45,839 nucleotides of DNA from Gemmatimonadaceae bacterium (GCA_041747275.1 JBGTFN010000139.1:1-45839); one strand, 5' to 3'. Positions 6,863 through 41,329 are shown, numbered from the stretch's first letter. Program-made: numbers and translations. The notes: generated by a model from the letters alone, not told the origin.

Positions 6863-8275
6863 GTGTCTGCGTTTCCGCGCACCAATGATCGGGTCCGGCA
6901 ATGGCTTGCGGATCGAACAAGCCAACAACCGATCCGCATCTTCGCGCTTGGCAAGGCTGCACCCGACATGGTCCGAGGTGCGCTTGCTGCGCTGAGCGAA
7001 CGAGGAACGACATGTGCCGGCGGAATCGTCATTGCGTCGCACCGACCTGCCGATGATGTGCTTCCGCTGCCGCTGCGAGTTGGTGATCACCCGCTGCCCG
7101 ACCTCGGTTCACTCGCGGCCGCAGACGCACTAGCCACTGCAGTCTCCGAAGTGAACGCGGGCGATCACATCTTGATTCTGCTCTCCGGCGGCACGACGTC
7201 ACTGTGCGCCGCCCCCTGCGCCGAGCTCGTGTCGCTCACGGGACATCCGGCCGACGCGCAGCAGCACATCGCAGACGCGATGGACCAGATGATGGCGCAC
7301 GGTCTCGCAATCCATGAAATGAACGCGATTCGCCGCCGACTGCTGCGCTGGGGCGCGGGTCGACTTTCCACCGCGCTGCATGCGCGTGGTGCGGGCGAGA
7401 TTCAGCTGCTGGCGATCTCCGATGTGATCGGCGACGATCCCGCCGTGATTGGTTCAGCGCCCTGCACCGCCGATCCGTTGCAAGCCGAAGATCTGTTGGC
7501 GCTCTGTGACGTGCACGGGTTGCGCTCCGCGTTTCACCCCACGGTCGCCCGCGCACTCGGACTCGCCGGAAGTGCGCACGTGGCTATTACAACCGCTCCG
7601 CCGTCACATCCGGCGTTCGAGCGAGTGCGCTACGAGGTGATCGCTGCGAATGCAGACGCATGCAGAGCAGTGTCTCTCGAGAGCGCACGCAGGGGGATCG
7701 AGCACGTGATCACGGCCGATGAACCGCTGCAGGGCGACGCGGAGGAGCTCGGTGCGGCGATCGCGCTGGTTGCACTGCGCTACGCGGAACGCCTTTTCGA
7801 CGAAGTGCATGCTGATGCGCGCAGCGCACATCGTGGCATCCGGTCTACGCACAGCGCGATCCTCATCTGGGGCGGTGAACCCACCATGCATACGCTCGGA
7901 CGCGACCGTGGTGACGAGGATGAAGATCTCGACCCCGATCGCGTCGCGCCGCTCGGCGGACGTATGCAGGCGCTGGCACTTTCCGCCGCGCTCGCGCTCG
8001 ACAACACCGTCTTCTCGGAGCCCGCCGCCCGACGTATCACGATTCTTGCCGCAGGAACGGACGGCCGTGACGGCCCCACCGATGCGGCCGGTGCCATTGT
8101 CGATGCATTCACGCCGACGCTGATCCGACGTGCGGGTCGCGATCCCTTGCGCGACTTGCAGCGGCTCTGCAGCTACCACGCGCTCGATAGCGCCGATGCG
8201 CTCGTTCGCACAGGACCAACCGGCACGAACGTGATGGACGTCGTCATCGCGCACATCGGCGCCGGCGAGTCGTAG
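6863..8275 (+). CDS. Glycerate 2-kinase / hydroxypyruvate reductase family protein (DUF4147 + MOFRL)
   Basis: ALGKAAPDM, LLSGGTTSL, ILAAGTDGRDGPTDAAGAIVD and RTGPTGTNVMDV. The first canonical start is GTG 6863. The frame is open further upstream, and the real start may be CTG 6788 (see findings). Confidence 0.8.
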   Translation: MSAFPRTNDRVRQWLADRTSQQPIRIFALGKAAPDMVRGALAALSERGTTCAGGIVIASHRPADDVLPLPLRVGDHPLPDLGSLAAADALATAVSEVNAGDHILILLSGGTTSLCAAPCAELVSLTGHPADAQQHIADAMDQMMAHGLAIHEMNAIRRRLLRWGAGRLSTALHARGAGEIQLLAISDVIGDDPAVIGSAPCTADPLQAEDLLALCDVHGLRSAFHPTVARALGLAGSAHVAITTAPPSHPAFERVRYEVIAANADACRAVSLESARRGIEHVITADEPLQGDAEELGAAIALVALRYAERLFDEVHADARSAHRGIRSTHSAILIWGGEPTMHTLGRDRGDEDEDLDPDRVAPLGGRMQALALSAALALDNTVFSEPAARRITILAAGTDGRDGPTDAAGAIVDAFTPTLIRRAGRDPLRDLQRLCSYHALDSADALVRTGPTGTNVMDVVIAHIGAGES

Positions 8276-8329: not shown

Positions 8330-9181
8330 ATGCCTCTCCGATCTTCCCGCCGCGAAAGCACTCGCATAGTCTCTGACGCATCGGCGTCGGGCGAGGCAGA
8401 CGTGCCGTCCGAAGCAGCCTACCGTCGCAAGCCACGGCAGTCGCGCGGACAACGTCGGGTGGACCTGCTGCTCGACGCCGCCGCCGAAGTGATCGCCGAG
8501 CACGGTCTCGATGCGGCAACTGCCGAAGCGATCGCGCAGCGCGCCCACACGGCCAAAGGATCGCTGTACCAGTTCTTTCCCAATCGGGAGGCTGTGGTTG
8601 CTGCGCTGGCGCTGCGATTCGCTGACGAACTGCGCAGCATCCACGAGCGTGCGTTCGCGACCGATCCGCGCGGTCTCGACCTTGAACGCCTGATCGATCG
8701 CATCGTACGACCGCTCGCTGCGTTCCACGATCGCAATCCCGCCTTTCGTCGCGTGTTCATGACCGCCGACGCGCCGGTCGACTCCACGGGTGCCGCACCG
8801 AACCGCATCCGCGCGCAGCTCTTCGAATCCATTGTGGACCGGCTCGACCTGCTGTTCGCCGCTCGCAATCCCCGATTGCCATCTCGCGAGCGTCGGCGAG
8901 CCGCTGTGGTGTGCGCAACGATCGGCCAGGCACTGCTGGCGAGGCGGGATCGTGCACAGGCAGCCGAGAAGAAGCCCTTGCTCGACGACCTGCGACGTGT
9001 GCTGCATGCGTATCTCACGCCGCTGCTCGATGCACCTGTCGCGCCCGCCGCAACGCCGGAGAAACGCTCCATGCCGCGTGCTCGGGCGGCTGCCAGTCAA
9101 AGTGCAAGTGGAAGTGTGAGTGAAGGTGCGAGTGGAAGTGCGAGTGGAAGTGCGAGCTCGCGCACGAAGGCAAAGCCCTGA
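8330..9181 (+). CDS. TetR/AcrR family transcriptional regulator with a Ser/Gly/Ala repeat tail
   Basis: HTH region RVDLLLDAAAEVIAEHGLDAATAEAIAQRAHTAKGSLYQFFPNREAV. The tail SASGSVSEGASGSASGSASS is encoded by five 12-bp units at 9101-9160. Confidence 0.85.
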   Translation: MPLRSSRRESTRIVSDASASGEADVPSEAAYRRKPRQSRGQRRVDLLLDAAAEVIAEHGLDAATAEAIAQRAHTAKGSLYQFFPNREAVVAALALRFADELRSIHERAFATDPRGLDLERLIDRIVRPLAAFHDRNPAFRRVFMTADAPVDSTGAAPNRIRAQLFESIVDRLDLLFAARNPRLPSRERRRAAVVCATIGQALLARRDRAQAAEKKPLLDDLRRVLHAYLTPLLDAPVAPAATPEKRSMPRARAAASQSASGSVSEGASGSASGSASSRTKAKP

Positions 9182-20043: not shown

Positions 20044-20070
20044 TTCTTCGCGCGTTCGCGCGTTCGCGCC
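20044..20070. repeat. Half copy of the octamer-array element (gcgcgttc units)
   Basis: ttcttcgcgcgttcgcgcgttcgcgcc matches the right arms of the elements at 22983-23023 and 27337-27367, including the ttctt/ttttt lead-in. Confidence 0.6.
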
Positions 20071-20304
20071 CCCTGCGCCGTCCGGCACACCTGTCCCCCA
20101 AAAACCAGTGCAAATCTCTGTCAACGGTCAACCGTCCGCCCAAGCACAATCGGCGTTAGCGAGTTACGTGTATCACAAAGAAACGAAATTGGCCCCCTCC
20201 CGGGGGTGACGCGACTCGCTCTCCGGTGGTAGGTTCTCTCATCGCCGAAGCATGGTCCTCGAGTTTCACCGGGGGCCCGTGGCCACACCTTTCACCCGCC
20301 CGAC

Positions 20305-21395: not shown

Positions 21396-22292
21396 GTGCT
21401 CACCGCCCGCGTGACCGCCCGTTCAGCCCGTCCGCGTCGCTTCCAGTCTGCACCAGTGCCGCCCCCCGAGTCGTCGCGCGAAGTCTTCCCTGAACCGGCC
21501 GCTCGCTCCCACCCGTGGACCGTGAGGTTGGGCGGAGCCGCACTGGCGATGGGCGCGATGGAAATCTCCCTGACGCTCGGACTTTCGGACGGCACCGGCC
21601 TGAATCACATCGCGCTGCGCCTGGTCGCGCTCGTTGCGGGCGCCATGCTCATGACCACACGAGTCGCCCGCCTGCTGTGGGCGGGATCGATTGCCGCAGC
21701 TGTGCTGCTCATGCTCGTCATGTTCACTCCGCTGGTCGAGCGACCCGCCATGTCACTGCTGCGGGCTGACGCCGACGGCACGCCGTCCGATGCGATCGTC
21801 GTCTACTCGGCCAGTTTCACCGACGCTGGGCACATCAACGGTATCGCGCTCACGCGTCTTGTAAGCGCCCTCGACGACGCGCGAACACTCGGCGTGCCGC
21901 ACGTCGTCGTATCTGAACAGATTCGCCGCGTGCGAGGACGAGCGATTTCCACCGTCAGCGACCAGCGGCGCACTGCGGAGTTGCTTGGCGGAGGCGTGAC
22001 CGTGCACGTCGTCACCGACGTGACCAACACACACGACGAAAGCCTCGCCTTTGCGGCGTACGCGCGCACGCAAGGCTGGGCGAACCTGCGCGCAGTCACG
22101 TCGCCGCTGCATGCGCGGCGCGCGTGCGAGACGCTCGAGGCGACCGGAATGCAGGTGACGTGTGCGCCCGCCGAATCCCGGGACGTCGCAATCACCAACA
22201 TCGACTCCCCAGGCGCTCGACTCATCGCCCTGCGCGCCGCGCTGCACGAGGCAATTGGTCTGGTGGTCTACCGCTGGCGTGGCTGGCTGTGA
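21396..22292 (+). CDS. DUF218 (YdcF/ElyC/SanA-like) membrane protein
   Basis: N-terminal TM helices, then IVVYSASF...RLVSALDD...VVVSEQ...VTSPLHARRACETLEATGMQV, the DUF218 core. The start is uncertain (GTG 21396 or ATG 21549). Confidence 0.65.
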   Translation: MLTARVTARSARPRRFQSAPVPPPESSREVFPEPAARSHPWTVRLGGAALAMGAMEISLTLGLSDGTGLNHIALRLVALVAGAMLMTTRVARLLWAGSIAAAVLLMLVMFTPLVERPAMSLLRADADGTPSDAIVVYSASFTDAGHINGIALTRLVSALDDARTLGVPHVVVSEQIRRVRGRAISTVSDQRRTAELLGGGVTVHVVTDVTNTHDESLAFAAYARTQGWANLRAVTSPLHARRACETLEATGMQVTCAPAESRDVAITNIDSPGARLIALRAALHEAIGLVVYRWRGWL

Positions 22293-22807
22293 GATCAAGG
22301 CGCGAAAGGCGTTTCAACTCATTGCGCCCGTTGCTTCTGCTGCTGAGCGCCGCGCTCCCGTCATGCGCGGAGGCAAGTCGCGAACCCTGCGTAGTCGCCA
22401 CCGTTTCCGACGGCGACTCACTGCGATGCACGGACCAACGCCGGGTGCGGCTGCTCCTGCTCGACGCCCCAGAGATCTCGCAGGCGCCCTTCGGCGCTCA
22501 ATCACGCGATGCACTACGTTCGCGTCTCGAGCGCGGCGACACGCTTTGGCTCGAATACGACGTCCGGCGAACCGACCAGTACGGTCGCACACTCGCTCAT
22601 GGATGGACCGCCGCCCGCGGCGGAACGCACGTCAACCTTCAGCAGGCGCGCGATGGCTGGGCGCTCGCCGTCGTCTATCCGCCCAACGTGCTCCACGTGG
22701 AAGCAATTCGCGAAGCGGTGGCGGAGGCAAGACGCGAACGTCGAGGACTGTGGAGCGACGGGCGCTTCACGTGCACTCCGATCGAACACCAACGGGGCCG
22801 CTGCTAG
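22289..22807 (+). CDS. Thermonuclease (staphylococcal nuclease-like) lipoprotein
   Basis: The lipobox-like N-terminus is LLLLLSAALPSCAE. The SNase core is DGDSLRC...RVRLLLLDAPE...YDVRRTDQYGRTLAHGW...VNLQQARDGWA. GTG 22289 overlaps the upstream stop as GTGA. Confidence 0.8.
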   Translation: MRSRRERRFNSLRPLLLLLSAALPSCAEASREPCVVATVSDGDSLRCTDQRRVRLLLLDAPEISQAPFGAQSRDALRSRLERGDTLWLEYDVRRTDQYGRTLAHGWTAARGGTHVNLQQARDGWALAVVYPPNVLHVEAIREAVAEARRERRGLWSDGRFTCTPIEHQRGRC

Positions 22808-22871
22808 GAGGGCAAGGCGCGAAGCGCGTCAGGTTCGACGGTTTGTGGCGTCTGAATGGAGGGTTTGTGTG

Positions 22872-23040
22872 GCGAGAGAGGCAGGAACGCGAAGGCGCGA
22901 ACGCGCAAAGGCGCAAAGGCGCAAAAAGACTGCGTTGGTGGGTGCGAGGCGTGGTCCGCCGTCGAAACACTTCCCCAACATTCTTTGCGCGTTCGCGCGT
23001 TTGCGCGTTTGCGCGTTTGCGCCACTGTCTCAGCCCAACA
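22872..23040. repeat. Palindromic element whose arms are tandem GCGCAAA(G/C) octamers (copy 1)
   Basis: The left arm, about 22885-22927, is gcgaaggcgcgaacgcgcaaaggcgcaaaggcgcaaaaag. The right arm, 22983-23023, is ctttgcgcgttcgcgcgtttgcgcgtttgcgcgtttgcgcc. The spacer and flanks are homologous to the copy at 27200-27385. Confidence 0.85.
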
Positions 23041-23066
23041 CGACACCCCGCCAAAGACGTCAGTCC

Positions 23067-23675
23067 CTACCTCGCCGCAGCCGTCGTTCGCGATTTCTTT
23101 TCGAGCGGGGCTGCCCCGGCATGCAGCAACGCCTTCGCCACTTCCTCCAGGCTGCGCCAGGCGTCACGCGCCGACCCTCGGGAGTGGCTTGAAACAGGCG
23201 ATTCGCGCGTCCTGGCGTTGACGGGGTGCGACTGCTCGTCTTCGAGATAGTACGATGTGCGCTGTTCGACCGCACGCAGGGACAGCACCGTCCCCCCCCA
23301 AGGCGAAGCATCATAGCGCACGAACATCTGCCATTCCCTGAGCTCGGCGGTGTCCAGCCATTCCGCGCCAAGGTCAACACGCACCCAACGTTCGGTCGTG
23401 TGTTGCGCGGCGGTGACCAGACCCGCCTGAACGAATGTGCGGCGCAGGAGCCGGACTGCGTCCGTCTGCCCCAACGGCATGAGCAGCACGATCGACTCGA
23501 GCGCGGGCGTGTCGCGTGATTGTGGCGTGGTCTCGACGGGCACCTCATGCCTGCACGCCGACACCAGTATCAGTGCCATTGAAAGGGAGAGCGCCCGGTG
23601 CGCGTGGGCTACCATTTGCGTACTCGCTGCATGCTCGACGTCCTCATGGTGACCGGCGACACTTCCATCGGGCAC
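23067..23675 (-). CDS. Hypothetical lipoprotein
   Basis: Natural-looking 202-aa ORF. The lipobox LILVSAC suggests the real start is ATG 23615 (MVAHAHRALSLSMALILVSAC). I recognise no domain. Confidence 0.5.
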   Translation of the reverse strand: MPDGSVAGHHEDVEHAASTQMVAHAHRALSLSMALILVSACRHEVPVETTPQSRDTPALESIVLLMPLGQTDAVRLLRRTFVQAGLVTAAQHTTERWVRVDLGAEWLDTAELREWQMFVRYDASPWGGTVLSLRAVEQRTSYYLEDEQSHPVNARTRESPVSSHSRGSARDAWRSLEEVAKALLHAGAAPLEKKSRTTAAAR

Positions 23676-26980: not shown

Positions 26981-27164
26981 GCTAACGAAATCACCGGTCT
27001 CGAGCCCGGCGATCTCTTCGAGCACCGGAACACCGCCAATCTCGTGCCCAACGTGGACTTCAGTTCCCAGTCGGTCATCCAGTACGCCGTGGGAGCACTT
27101 GGGGTCGAGCATGTGGTGGTGTGATCACTACGGTTGCGGCGGCATCAAGGCCGCGATGCAGTAG
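26981..27164 (+). pseudogene. Beta-class carbonic anhydrase remnant (5'- and 3'-truncated, frameshifted)
   Basis: ANEITGLEPGDLFEHRNTANLVPNVDFSSQSVIQYAVGALGVEHVVV* is followed in the +1 frame by CDHYGCGGIKAAMQ*. Together these match the E. coli Can segment [21 protein letters not shown]...[25 protein letters not shown]. In-frame stops lie just upstream (TGA 26966-26968). The frame breaks at gtggtggtgtgatcac (27113-27128), and TAG is at 27162-27164. Only about 60 of roughly 210 expected codons remain. Confidence 0.75.
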
Positions 27165-27199
27165 GGCGTCGGAGCGCTTTCACCGCGCGATCGGGAGCA

Positions 27200-27385
27200 A
27201 GAGGGGAGGCAGTGGGCGCGAATTCGCAAACGCGCAAACGCGCAAACGCGCAAACGCGCAAACGCGGAAACGCGCAACAACAGCAAAGCTGGTGGATACG
27301 GAACTCGGCCCGCGAATCGAACCACCAAGAAATTTTTCGCGCGTTTGCGCGTTTGCGATTTCGCGCCTCCTGAGCCAGCCCGAAC
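27200..27385. repeat. Palindromic element whose arms are tandem CGCAAACG octamers (copy 2)
   Basis: The left arm 27216-27279 holds seven 8-bp units (cgcaaacg x5, cggaaacg, cgcaacaa). The right arm 27337-27367 is cgcgcgtttgcgcgtttgcgatttcgcgcc. The spacer contains tggtgg...ccacca. Confidence 0.85.
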
Positions 27386-27561
27386 ACGTATTCTCAGATC
27401 GAACCGCCCAGGCCCAGACCCGCCAAGCTGGCACGCCTTGACGACTCCGGCGGCCACTCCGCGTGAACGTCGTTGGTGCTTTGCGCGTATAAAGGGGTGT
27501 CGCGGGCACACTGCCGAGACTCGGCAACGTGCCCGTTTTATTGACGCCTCAATTCGTGCCA

Positions 27562-40742: not shown

Positions 40743-41191
40743 GCTGTTTGGCATTGGCTGCCGTCGATTCGCGTATGGCCATATGGCCCAGTCTATCAGG
40801 CCATCCAGCCTGGCGGATACGTACAGGGGCACCGAGCGACAATGCTGCCCGGCGGGCATCTGCGTGGCAGACGTTCCTTTTCGGTTCGGCGGGGCGAAGG
40901 CACCGAGGCTGGATGGCCTGATGGACCAGGCCATACGGCCTGGTGCGCGAAACACAACAGCAGTCGGATGGCTGTTGGCCATTGGCTGCAGTCGATTCGC
41001 TTATACGGCTATCCGGCTCAGTCCATCTGGCCATCCAGCCGGGCGGATACGTACAGGGGCACCAAGCGACAATCCTGCTCGGCGGGCATCTGCGTGGCAG
41101 ACGTTCCTTCTCGGCGCGGCGGGGCAAAGGCACCGAGGCCGGAGGCCTGACGCACCAGGCCATACGGCCAGATGCGCGAAACCCAATCGCC
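40743..41191. repeat. Two tandem repeat units of about 225 bp, each with long inverted-repeat arms
   Basis: Unit 1 (40743-40970) and unit 2 (40971-41191) align along their whole length. A third unit begins at 41192 (gctgtatg) and breaks off. In unit 1, 40785-40810 is complementary to 40907-40932 at 23 of 26 positions. Confidence 0.9.
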
Positions 41192-41211
41192 GCTGTATGT
41201 CCGTTCACAAC

Positions 41212-41256: not shown

Positions 41257-41329
41257 TTGCCCCTCTAGGGCTCGAACCTAGACTCTCCTCATCCAGAGTG
41301 AGGCGTGTTGCCAGTTACACCAAGGGGCA
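41257..41329 (-). tRNA. tRNA-Gln (anticodon CUG)
   Basis: The minus strand reads TGCCCCT TG GTGT AACTGGCA ACAC G CCTCA CTCTGGA TGAGG AGAGT CTAGG TTCGAGC CCTAG AGGGGCA A. The cloverleaf is complete, with U1:A72 as is usual for tRNA-Gln. CCA is not encoded. Confidence 0.9.

Follow-up and report, generated by a model that had tools for sequence, protein, structure and literature searches.

An intergenic palindrome with arms of tandem octamers in a Gemmatimonadaceae genome, and look-alikes in many phyla

What kind of element is the large palindrome that separates two convergent genes in a contig of a Gemmatimonadaceae bacterium (GCA_041747275.1, JBGTFN010000139.1:1-45839)? The contig, analysed over its full 45,839 nucleotides and here called the window, has a G+C content of ~64%. 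An earlier note, made from the sequence alone, had described the palindrome as an inverted repeat with arms of phased octamers, as a member of a repeat family, and as a possible hairpin, cruciform or protein-binding array. On balance, we favour the view that the element is a dispersed repeat, non-coding and able to form a hairpin, of the kind represented by repetitive extragenic palindromes (REP), their inverted doublets (REPIN) and miniature transposable elements with inverted repeats (MITEs). [quoted passage not shown]

The palindrome, hereafter copy 1, is imperfect and non-coding, occupies positions 22866-23045 (~180 bp) and comprises a 56-nt core between two inverted arrays of about five GCGCAAAS octamers each. 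From left to right it consists of an outer flank, GTGTGGCGAGAGAGGCAGG... (22866-22887); a left arm of ~4.8 octamers, CGCGAAG GCGCGAAC GCGCAAAG GCGCAAAG GCGCAAAA (22888-22926); the non-repetitive core, AGACTGCGTTGGTGGGTGCGAGGCGTGGTCCGCCGTCGAAACACTTCCCCAACATT, with a small terminal hairpin of its own (22927-22982); a right arm of five octamers, CTTTGCGC GTTCGCGC followed by three units of GTTTGCGC (22983-23022); and a right outer flank, CACTGTCTCAGCCCAACACG (23023-23045), which pairs with the left outer flank in the predicted minimum-free-energy structure and recurs in the second copy. Tandem Repeats Finder reported both arrays with a period of 8, at 22888-22925 (4.8 units of CGCAAAGG) and at 22984-23022 (4.9 units of TTTGCGCG), and a repeat finder paired 22878-22925 with 22984-23031 as 48-nt arms, 79% complementary and 58 nt apart. 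Every detail previously given of the octamer arms, their inverted layout and the spacer was found in place.

A second palindrome, copy 2, spans 27203-27388, with a left arm of eight units (27216-27279), a core (27280-27334), a decaying right arm of ~4 units (27335-27366) and a right flank, CAGCCCGAACACG, at 27376-27388. Here Tandem Repeats Finder reported arrays at 27225-27277 (6.6 units) and 27339-27357 (2.4 units), and the repeat finder gave 37-nt arms, 27210-27246 and 27336-27372, that are 89% complementary. Homology between copy 1 and a copy near 27200-27385 had been claimed, and the spacers and right flanks (CAGCCCAACACG against CAGCCCGAACACG) do align. Absent from the earlier note is a third, one-armed array of three units, CTTCGCGC GTTCGCGC GTTCGCGC, at 20046-20069 in the divergent region between a DsbA-like and an NlpC/P60 gene. 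We refer to the positions of copy 1, copy 2 and this array as sites 1, 2 and 3. A two-unit pattern with at most two mismatches matched 16 times in the window, where 0.34 matches were expected and none of 100 shuffles gave as many, and all 16 matches are confined to the three sites. Exact GCGCRAAS octamers number 38, with 17 inside the arrays and 21 outside, against ~25 expected window-wide; the octamer is not a scattered word in this DNA.

The sites were followed into other genomes in orthologous regions retrieved via homologues of the genes that enclose copy 1, which encode a nuclease and a 182-aa protein. The window represents an uncultured lineage of Gemmatimonadales: homologues of its proteins with a named source belong to that order, and Gemmatimonas groenlandica matched at only 47% identity in one protein. 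In four close relatives, L121, L128, L132 and L064 (an 8-kb piece of the metagenome-assembled genome (MAG) JBBQNT01, syntenic with the window at 83.5%), the flanking genes are ~81-91% identical to those of the window. Wherever sequence was available, site 1 was occupied in the window, L121, L128 and L132, site 2 in the window, L121 and L128, and site 3 in the window, L064, L121 and L128. In the more distant L129 and L130, the convergent gene pair of site 1 lies only 5 bp apart, an empty site. L129 also has no array past its intact carbonic-anhydrase gene (site 2) or in its DsbA/NlpC spacer (site 3), and L122 and L123 lack arrays at all three positions. Because the elements at these sites are present in close relatives and absent from distant ones, they were gained once, in the ancestor of a single Gemmatimonadales clade, with vertical inheritance thereafter. 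The window's two homologous palindromes and its one-armed array, together with the orthologous copies of the four relatives, bear out the claim of a repeat family.

Comparison of the cores indicates how the sites are related. The cores of copies 1 and 2 are identical in 35 of 61 aligned columns and the copy 1 core matches the site-2 core of L128 in 39 of 62; in neither case did any of 2000 shuffles score as high. Sites 1 and 2 also have AGGCAGG and CTGTCTC..CAGCCC(G)AACACG in common as outer flanks, the AGGCAGG motif of the left flank being found in both window copies, in L121 and in L132. Since 56-nt cores and outer flanks are homologous at positions 4.3 kb apart, a composite unit was copied, rather than an array grown in place. 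This unit, of ~180 bp (at least 150 bp), comprises flank, arm, core, arm and flank, and came to occupy two or more sites between genes. In L128 the core of site 2 is a mosaic, its left half resembling copy 1 and its right half copy 2; at site 1 of the same relative the core is unrelated and the spacer holds an extra copy of the right arm. The mosaic and the rearranged site show that exchange and rearrangement took place between copies, and the homologous, partly mosaic cores as a whole point to copying or gene conversion between sites. At site 2 of L121 the core is shortened. Between the window and L121 the core keeps its 56-nt length with no insertion or deletion, at 73% identity where flanking genes show 81-84%, which suggests modest constraint.

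The arms change in a different manner. Invariant unit numbers among relatives had been named in the earlier note as one part of a case against a mobile or regulatory role; the numbers in fact differ. Site 3 holds 2.9 units in the window, 4.1 in L064, ~4 in L128 and 7.2 in L121, with differing unit variants, and the right arm of site 1 holds 4.9 units in the window (GTTTGCGC three times) against 6.1 in L121 (ATTTGCGC three times). The left arm of site 1 in L132 is the pair GCGCGAAC CCGCGAAT given twice, and site 3 of L121 carries CTTGGCGC five times. Overall, the unit number ranges from 3 to 8, and across orthologous units only GCGC..AA is constant, with positions 5 and 8 drifting. The arms change by gain and loss of whole 8-nt units, one variant tending to take over an arm. 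Each arm is homogenised separately, and as a result the arms of copy 1 mismatch at every eighth position and are only 79% complementary, a pattern that is the signature of slipped-strand gain and loss and not of selection for perfect pairing. Slipped-strand mispairing may be aided by the self-complementary GCGC in each unit, and neighbouring units could pair as GCGC-NNNN-GCGC mini-hairpins. The right arm of site 2 in L121 has decayed. Variation in unit number could provide a useful strain-typing marker.

Other short tandem arrays were seen in the same lineage. A different octamer array, GGCGAATC in six units, lies at 15544-15593 of L121, directly upstream of the site-2 GCGCAAAS arm, and is not present in the window. 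The window has a 12-nt tandem array of ~5 units (AAGTGCGAGTGG) at 9091-9156, at the 3' end of or just past a TetR-family gene, and a similar 15-mer pair (two units of ggtgagcgagtggcg) adjoins the octamer element in L132. L165 and L166, two further pieces of clade DNA, have intergenic arrays of 7, 9 and 12 nt. Short tandem arrays thus seem to arise readily in the spacers of this lineage in general.

By prediction, copy 1 folds on the plus strand into a single long hairpin that takes in the outer flanks (-98.6 kcal/mol, z -5.4), and it does so on the minus strand as well (-90 kcal/mol, z -4.4). Copy 2 folds at -97 kcal/mol with a z of -7.2, and the z values across the predicted copies run from -4.2 to -7.2. 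The weak inversion of the outer flanks and the capacity for a long hairpin or cruciform, both suggested earlier, agree with these folds, which either strand could adopt. Two open reading frames (ORFs) overlap copy 1 (22767-23054, minus strand; 22856-23221, plus strand), and a coding reading of them was rejected: lengths in orthologs differ by multiples of 8 nt, and because unit steps of 8 nt would shift any frame, the element is non-coding.

Several known kinds of element were tried and set aside. Rfam 15 at its gathering score yielded only two tRNAs in the window and no match at the element, at E<=1 gave only generic miRNA-precursor hairpins far below threshold, and at the gathering score had no match at 17 look-alike loci. 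A tRNA-like core (TGGTGG...TCGAACC) was rejected, as ARAGORN found none and the arm geometry is unlike that of tRNA. A CRISPR array would have 23-47-nt repeats and unique spacers; the units here are 8 nt long, contiguous and in inverted blocks. A scan for canonical terminators found no terminator-like site at any of the three positions or anywhere in the 8-kb region that holds them, no U-tract follows the stem 3' at the window copies, and a test of A-tracts and T-tracts for canonical bidirectional terminators was negative. BLAST of the element against plasmid and phage collections gave no match. In the full-text literature search, no paper was found with the 16-mers, the 8-mers were found only as primers, and searches on octamer repeats, Gemmatimonas and Sorangium MITEs returned nothing specific to the element.

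In this clade, the dispersed repeat of the REP/REPIN/MITE kind is probably mainly a selfish or neutral structural repeat; it has been copied locally and now evolves in place, promoting local rearrangement. In transcripts of the 3' regions of convergent or tandem genes, its predicted stem of ~60 bp could block 3' exonucleases or read-through, an effect also proposed for REP and STRR. A number of observations weigh against this assignment. No target-site duplication was recognised, there being no direct repeat outside the palindromes of copies 1 and 2, and the insertion boundaries cannot be set, because L129 has just 5 bp at its empty site and additional sequence is present in the filled spacers. 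A Pfam scan of 30 window ORFs found no transposase, RAYT (REP-associated tyrosine transposase) or integrase, and no protein family is repeatedly seen beside the 120 loci listed from a wider scan described below, save for TPR proteins, a promiscuous family. The copies look few and local, with three sites in 7.3 kb and none in the remaining ~38 kb of the window, and a further 42 kb of clade DNA (L165, L166) held no octamer array; this DNA is syntenic with window positions 32.7-45.8 kb and runs beyond, and the window is itself arrayless outside 20-27.4 kb. This apparently low, local copy number is unlike that of classical REP and MITE families. A metagenome scan with a core pattern that fits all three known copies, GCGCRAAN{8,16}KKGKTTCGAN{14,19}GYAYCMAYCA, gave four matches, all in coding DNA without arrays and hence due to chance. 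That each clade member examined has kept all three sites could instead mean selection for a function. The data do not speak for a genome-wide mobile family, copies in ~100 kb of clade DNA being confined to one 7.3-kb neighbourhood.

Two other repeats of the window may be mentioned here. Two tandem copies of ~230 nt (79-89% identical), with GGCC-rich internal inverted repeats, lie at 40774-41205 and adjoin a tRNA-Gln gene (41257-41329); they are probably the other intergenic repeat family implied by the title of the earlier note, which called the octamer palindromes a second one. Just beyond the equivalent position, L165 and L166 have a ~1.9-kb PAS/HisKA hybrid kinase gene that the window does not have. 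At 420-613, two 88-nt arms that are 76% complementary and separated by 18 nt form a long inverted repeat.

To place the element in a broader context, we scanned one genome per species for three GCGCRAAS units and obtained at least 120 loci. The loci listed came from Acidobacteriota (many of them Pyrinomonadaceae), Sorangium, Byssovorax, Planctomycetota, Verrucomicrobiota, Chlamydiota, Lentisphaerota, Chloroflexota, Cyanobacteria, Proteobacteria and a few Actinomycetota. Among the matches listed, palindromic loci occur in Myxococcota as well as in Acidobacteriota, Planctomycetota, Chlamydiota, Chloroflexota, Verrucomicrobiota and Proteobacteria. In 56 of the 120 loci the array is followed within 300 nt by a reverse-complement one and in 9 it is preceded by one, a bias with p < 1e-8 under equal odds when relatedness is ignored. 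The unit in these listed matches is almost always GCGCAAAG or GCGCGAAG, 109 of the 123 arrays have three units, and the typical hairpin has the form (GCGCAAAG)~3-loop-(CTTTGCGC)~3, with an outer boundary that is typically tctc|GCGC or aac|GCAAAG. Copies in the same genome have common loops and outer inverted flanks, as in Sorangium (ggatccagagagagttcaac...gttgaatctctc..gatccctgg) and in Pyrinomonadaceae (loop tagaaacgcggtagcg), and full hairpins measure 64-286 nt; with such lengths, common loops and flanks, they are MITE-like. Look-alikes are present in the complete genomes of Sorangium cellulosum So0157-2 (NC_021658.1) and in a Pyrinomonadaceae chromosome (OY970389.1). A MITE of Trichormus contains one octamer array. 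A T-rich tail (at least 5 T within 10 nt past the helix) follows only 6 of 55 hairpins of this wider class. The junction of left arm and loop in the window copy, GCGCAAAAAGACTG, is identical to one in Byssovorax.

The palindromic layout was compared with that of composition-matched control octamers on viral contigs. The GCGC type gave 11 loci, four of them palindromic, and the controls (CGCG, 3 loci; GGCC, 15; GCCG, 3) gave none in 21 (one-sided Fisher p ~0.009). Because control arrays are as common but never palindromic, arrays as such are ordinary and the palindromic layout is specific to the GCGC octamer. Lentisphaerae loci (L092 2350-2950, L025 1-520) carry other palindromes, with arms of 9-mer arrays, (ATCGGACGG)n/(CCGTCCGAT)n, and for this reason the architecture is more general than one unit.

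Some of these loci have features of their own. The same Lentisphaerae segments (L092 2350-2950, L025 1-520) contain ~127-nt modular repeats, each with three units of CGCGAAGG and a cttgccgc..gcggcaag hairpin, and had no Rfam match. In L117, a Pyrinomonadaceae MAG, near-identical octamer hairpins at 1408-1471 and 7870-7925, in opposite orientation, bracket 6.4 kb of ordinary-looking genes; no transposase was noticed on reading through that segment. In L120, L139 and L141 (Sphingomonadales and high-G+C viral contigs), a second octamer array, (GGAGACGC/GGAGGCGC)n, precedes GCGCGAAG hairpins, an arrangement that suggests composite elements, some on contigs classed as viral.

As a class, the GCGCAAAG hairpins seen across phyla appear undescribed. 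We raise, as a speculation that has the odds against it, that (GCGCAAAG)n-loop-(CTTTGCGC)n is one undescribed, horizontally spreading class across Acidobacteriota, Myxococcota, the PVC (Planctomycetota-Verrucomicrobiota-Chlamydiota) phyla, Chloroflexota, Cyanobacteria, Proteobacteria and Gemmatimonadota, in which the arrays are the functional ends and the Gemmatimonadales copies are old and decaying. These ends might be sub-terminal binding sites for some transposase or for a conserved host factor, for example RNA polymerase. The G-10 to G-2 spacing of the consensus elemental pause equals the 8-nt period of the arrays. If one mobile family or one recognition mechanism does lie behind the class, the intergenic DNA of bacteria would have in it a widespread component that has so far gone unannotated.

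The convergent placement reported for copy 1 is correct. To its left, on the plus strand, is a homologue of staphylococcal nuclease (thermonuclease) at 22289-22807 (172 aa; Pfam SNase, E 4.7e-16; stop codon TAG at 22805-22807), whose C-terminus, HQRGRC*, is conserved in relatives without the element. To its right, on the minus strand, is the gene of the 182-aa protein (23067-23615; stop codon at 23067), which is restricted to the clade, has no Pfam domain and only 7 homologues in 5.8 billion proteins, and has an L121 ortholog of 182 aa. The left part of the spacer forms a leader (22808-22865) with the motif GGCAAGGCGCGAAGCGCG at 22811-22828, beginning 3 nt past the nuclease stop codon; it matches L121 in 29 of 33 nt, above the identity of the flanking genes, and at site 2 of L121 and L128 the motif GGCAAGGCGCGAAS likewise comes 3' of the stop codon of the carbonic-anhydrase gene. 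Inside this conserved motif, right after the stop codon, is the heptamer GCGAAGC (22819-22825), a sequence that forms a DNA mini-hairpin of unusual stability.

Copy 2 has a carbonic-anhydrase remnant on one side and an RND efflux operon (HlyD/AcrB) on the other. The remnant, at 26981-27164 on the plus strand, was delineated by tblastn with the intact L121 protein and covers residues ~50-110 of 213 of a beta-carbonic anhydrase, with a frameshift near 27121; deletion has removed the N-terminal 49 codons and the C-terminal half. L121, L128 and L129 have the gene intact. Positions 15155-15805 of L121 (650 bp) correspond to 27162-27433 of the window (272 bp), and the 3' deletion reaches the left edge of copy 2, so copy 2 borders the deletion that destroyed the gene. 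Since it is at the element that the remnant stops, the repeat marks a site especially prone to length variation and deletion. Assembly, too, appears to break off at the repeat, as the contig of one relative terminates within an arm. The element accounts for three odd intergenic regions and one dead gene in the source genome.

At site 3 the neighbours, a DsbA-like thioredoxin gene (minus strand) and an NlpC/P60 gene (plus strand), are divergent. Upstream of or overlapping the NlpC/P60 start is a strongly conserved non-coding stretch at 20150-20300 (also L121 7850-7990, L064 and L128), which reads gtatcacaaag..attggcc..cccgggggtgacgcgac..ggtggtaggttct..tcgccgaag.atgg. It has no Rfam match at E<=1 and hence is not a ydaO-type riboswitch; a new leader or regulatory RNA is possible.

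Among the alternatives to a dispersed repeat, the one that fares best is a selected function as a bidirectional transcription stop or a protector of mRNA 3' ends, in which either transcript would read 5'-(GCGCAAAS)n-loop-(SUUUGCGC)n-3' and form a long stem. We regard it as doubtful. The copies are placed directly past stop codons, between convergent genes at site 1 and tandem genes at site 2, their predicted hairpin is very stable on both strands, and each strand has its A-containing arm 5' and its U-containing arm 3', the order that prevails 56 to 9 among the listed loci. With no canonical terminator predicted in the 8-kb region, other devices may be needed, and transcript stabilisation has been proposed for STRR hairpins (PMC2670836). 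However, the missing U-tract and the rarity of T-rich tails in the wider class do not fit a terminator, and shared ancestry may explain the order bias. Moreover, site 3, in a divergent promoter region, has only one arm, at site 2 of L121 the right arm is in decay, the arms do not co-vary to preserve pairing, and a relative with the same genes 5 bp apart has no element.

A second alternative holds that the arrays are phased double-stranded binding sites for an oligomerising protein whose two-fold symmetry the palindrome would reflect. MetJ recognises 8-bp met boxes, and ribbon-helix-helix proteins of the ParG type bind arrays of a tetramer box and a 4-bp spacer. By analogy, the invariant GCGC..AA with drifting positions 5 and 8 has the look of a contact motif and spacer, sites 2 and 3 lie upstream of promoters (those of the RND efflux operon and of the DsbA-like and NlpC/P60 genes), and the three sites persist in every clade member. 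Against this, isolated octamers are not enriched, units range freely in number between 3 and 8, arrays are absent from outgroups that have the same genes, and no partition, ribbon-helix-helix or other candidate gene was linked among the 30 window ORFs in the Pfam scan. An octamer found in many phyla would also require a pan-bacterial binding protein, and we know of none that binds it. We judge such a function improbable. The dimeric-protein array put forward in the earlier note gained no support, given the unenriched octamers, the absence of a linked candidate protein and the independent drift of the arms.

A local mutational by-product, that is, a microsatellite-like array whose inverted copy arose by fold-back or template switching and that is neither mobile nor functional, would suit a lineage whose spacers are rich in other arrays (the 12-mer at 9091-9156, the six GGCGAATC units of L121, and the 7- and 12-mers of L165 and L166), as well as the bare array without a core at site 3 and the restriction of copies to one neighbourhood. 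It does not suit the homologous 56-nt cores and outer flanks of sites 1 and 2, the control octamers, whose arrays are never palindromic, or the same-genome families with common loops and outer flanks in other phyla, and given the copied core a purely local by-product is decidedly unlikely. Finally, a conserved core acting as a small structured RNA, with the octamer arms a mere clamp, can be set aside as highly improbable: the core is 56 nt long without indels in the window and L121, keeps TCGAA in five of six cores (GGTTCGA, T-loop-like, on the opposite strand) and has a predicted terminal hairpin, but it has no Rfam match at E<=1 save sub-threshold miRNA-precursor hairpins and no tRNA-like gene by ARAGORN, is 73% identical in close relatives, below coding DNA, is predicted to fold differently between copies, and is replaced at site 1 of L128 and shortened at site 2 of L121.

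A dispersed repeat remains our preferred reading, and its closest known systems can be compared in turn. Like intrinsic terminators, the element presents a GC-rich hairpin right after stop codons, symmetric between convergent genes; unlike them, it has a stem ten times the usual length and no U-tract, and one site is single-armed in a promoter region. A hairpin role at RNA 3' ends is plausible, though doubtful. With ribbon-helix-helix arrays (the met boxes of MetJ, and ParG at parH) it shares, as an analogy only, an 8-bp period, a 4-bp box with a 4-bp A/T-rich spacer, and direct and inverted arrays. It differs in being chromosomal, intergenic and spread across phyla, and the window has neither a par nor a ribbon-helix-helix gene. 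An array for protein binding is possible, though improbable.

Nearest among the known elements is STRR, which is reportedly also present within a helix of RNase P RNA, to go by a title of Vioque from 1997. STRR sequences are tandem 7-bp units in non-coding DNA of heterocystous cyanobacteria that form hairpins, for example in the hupS-hupL intergenic region, and a role in transcript stability has been proposed for them (PMC2670836). The inverted octamer repeat had been called unusual. The repeat itself stands, but hairpin arms of tandem units were already known from STRR (PMC2670836), and the same octamer layout occurs in many phyla. As in STRR, the units here are short, tandem, intergenic and non-coding, occur as inverted pairs and are capable of forming hairpins. 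The unit is, however, 8 bp instead of 7 bp and unrelated in sequence, the host belongs to Gemmatimonadales, with look-alikes in many phyla, and the element contains, besides its arms, a conserved core without repeats and outer flanks, all copied from site to site. Tandem-unit hairpins, so far treated as a cyanobacterial curiosity, are now seen in many phyla and on some viral contigs.

REP and REPIN sequences are intergenic imperfect palindromes near stop codons that are mobilised by RAYT (TnpA-REP), a REPIN being a hairpin of an inverted doublet (PMC3116915, PMC3333891, PMC3733652). They are inherited at orthologous sites, and a selfish origin with possible side effects at the RNA level is proposed for them (PMC3116915, PMC3333891, PMC3733652); the present element is alike in both respects. 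Differences are that neither GTAG nor CGTC abuts either arm in copy 1 or copy 2, that no RAYT gene is present among the 30 window ORFs, that copy number is apparently low (three sites in 45.8 kb), and that arrays of tandem units replace the single 20-40-nt palindrome of a REP stem. Some look-alikes in Pyrinomonadaceae begin with CGTCTC.

MITEs such as Correia/NEMIS, ERIC and Nezha are 100-250 bp long and intergenic, with long inverted termini and no coding capacity. The element here differs in that no target-site duplication and no autonomous partner was found, in the window or at the 120 listed loci, that its inverted parts hold tandem octamers, and that the window family is local and old, with cores ~60% identical. 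It has the small size, the terminal inverted repeats and the lack of coding capacity of a MITE, being a 180-nt imperfect palindrome if the outer flanks are included. MITEs also form within-genome families with common termini, a description that the look-alikes in Sorangium and Pyrinomonadaceae fit exactly. The palindromic, intergenic, non-coding and family-forming properties of REP/REPIN sequences and MITEs are common to the element.

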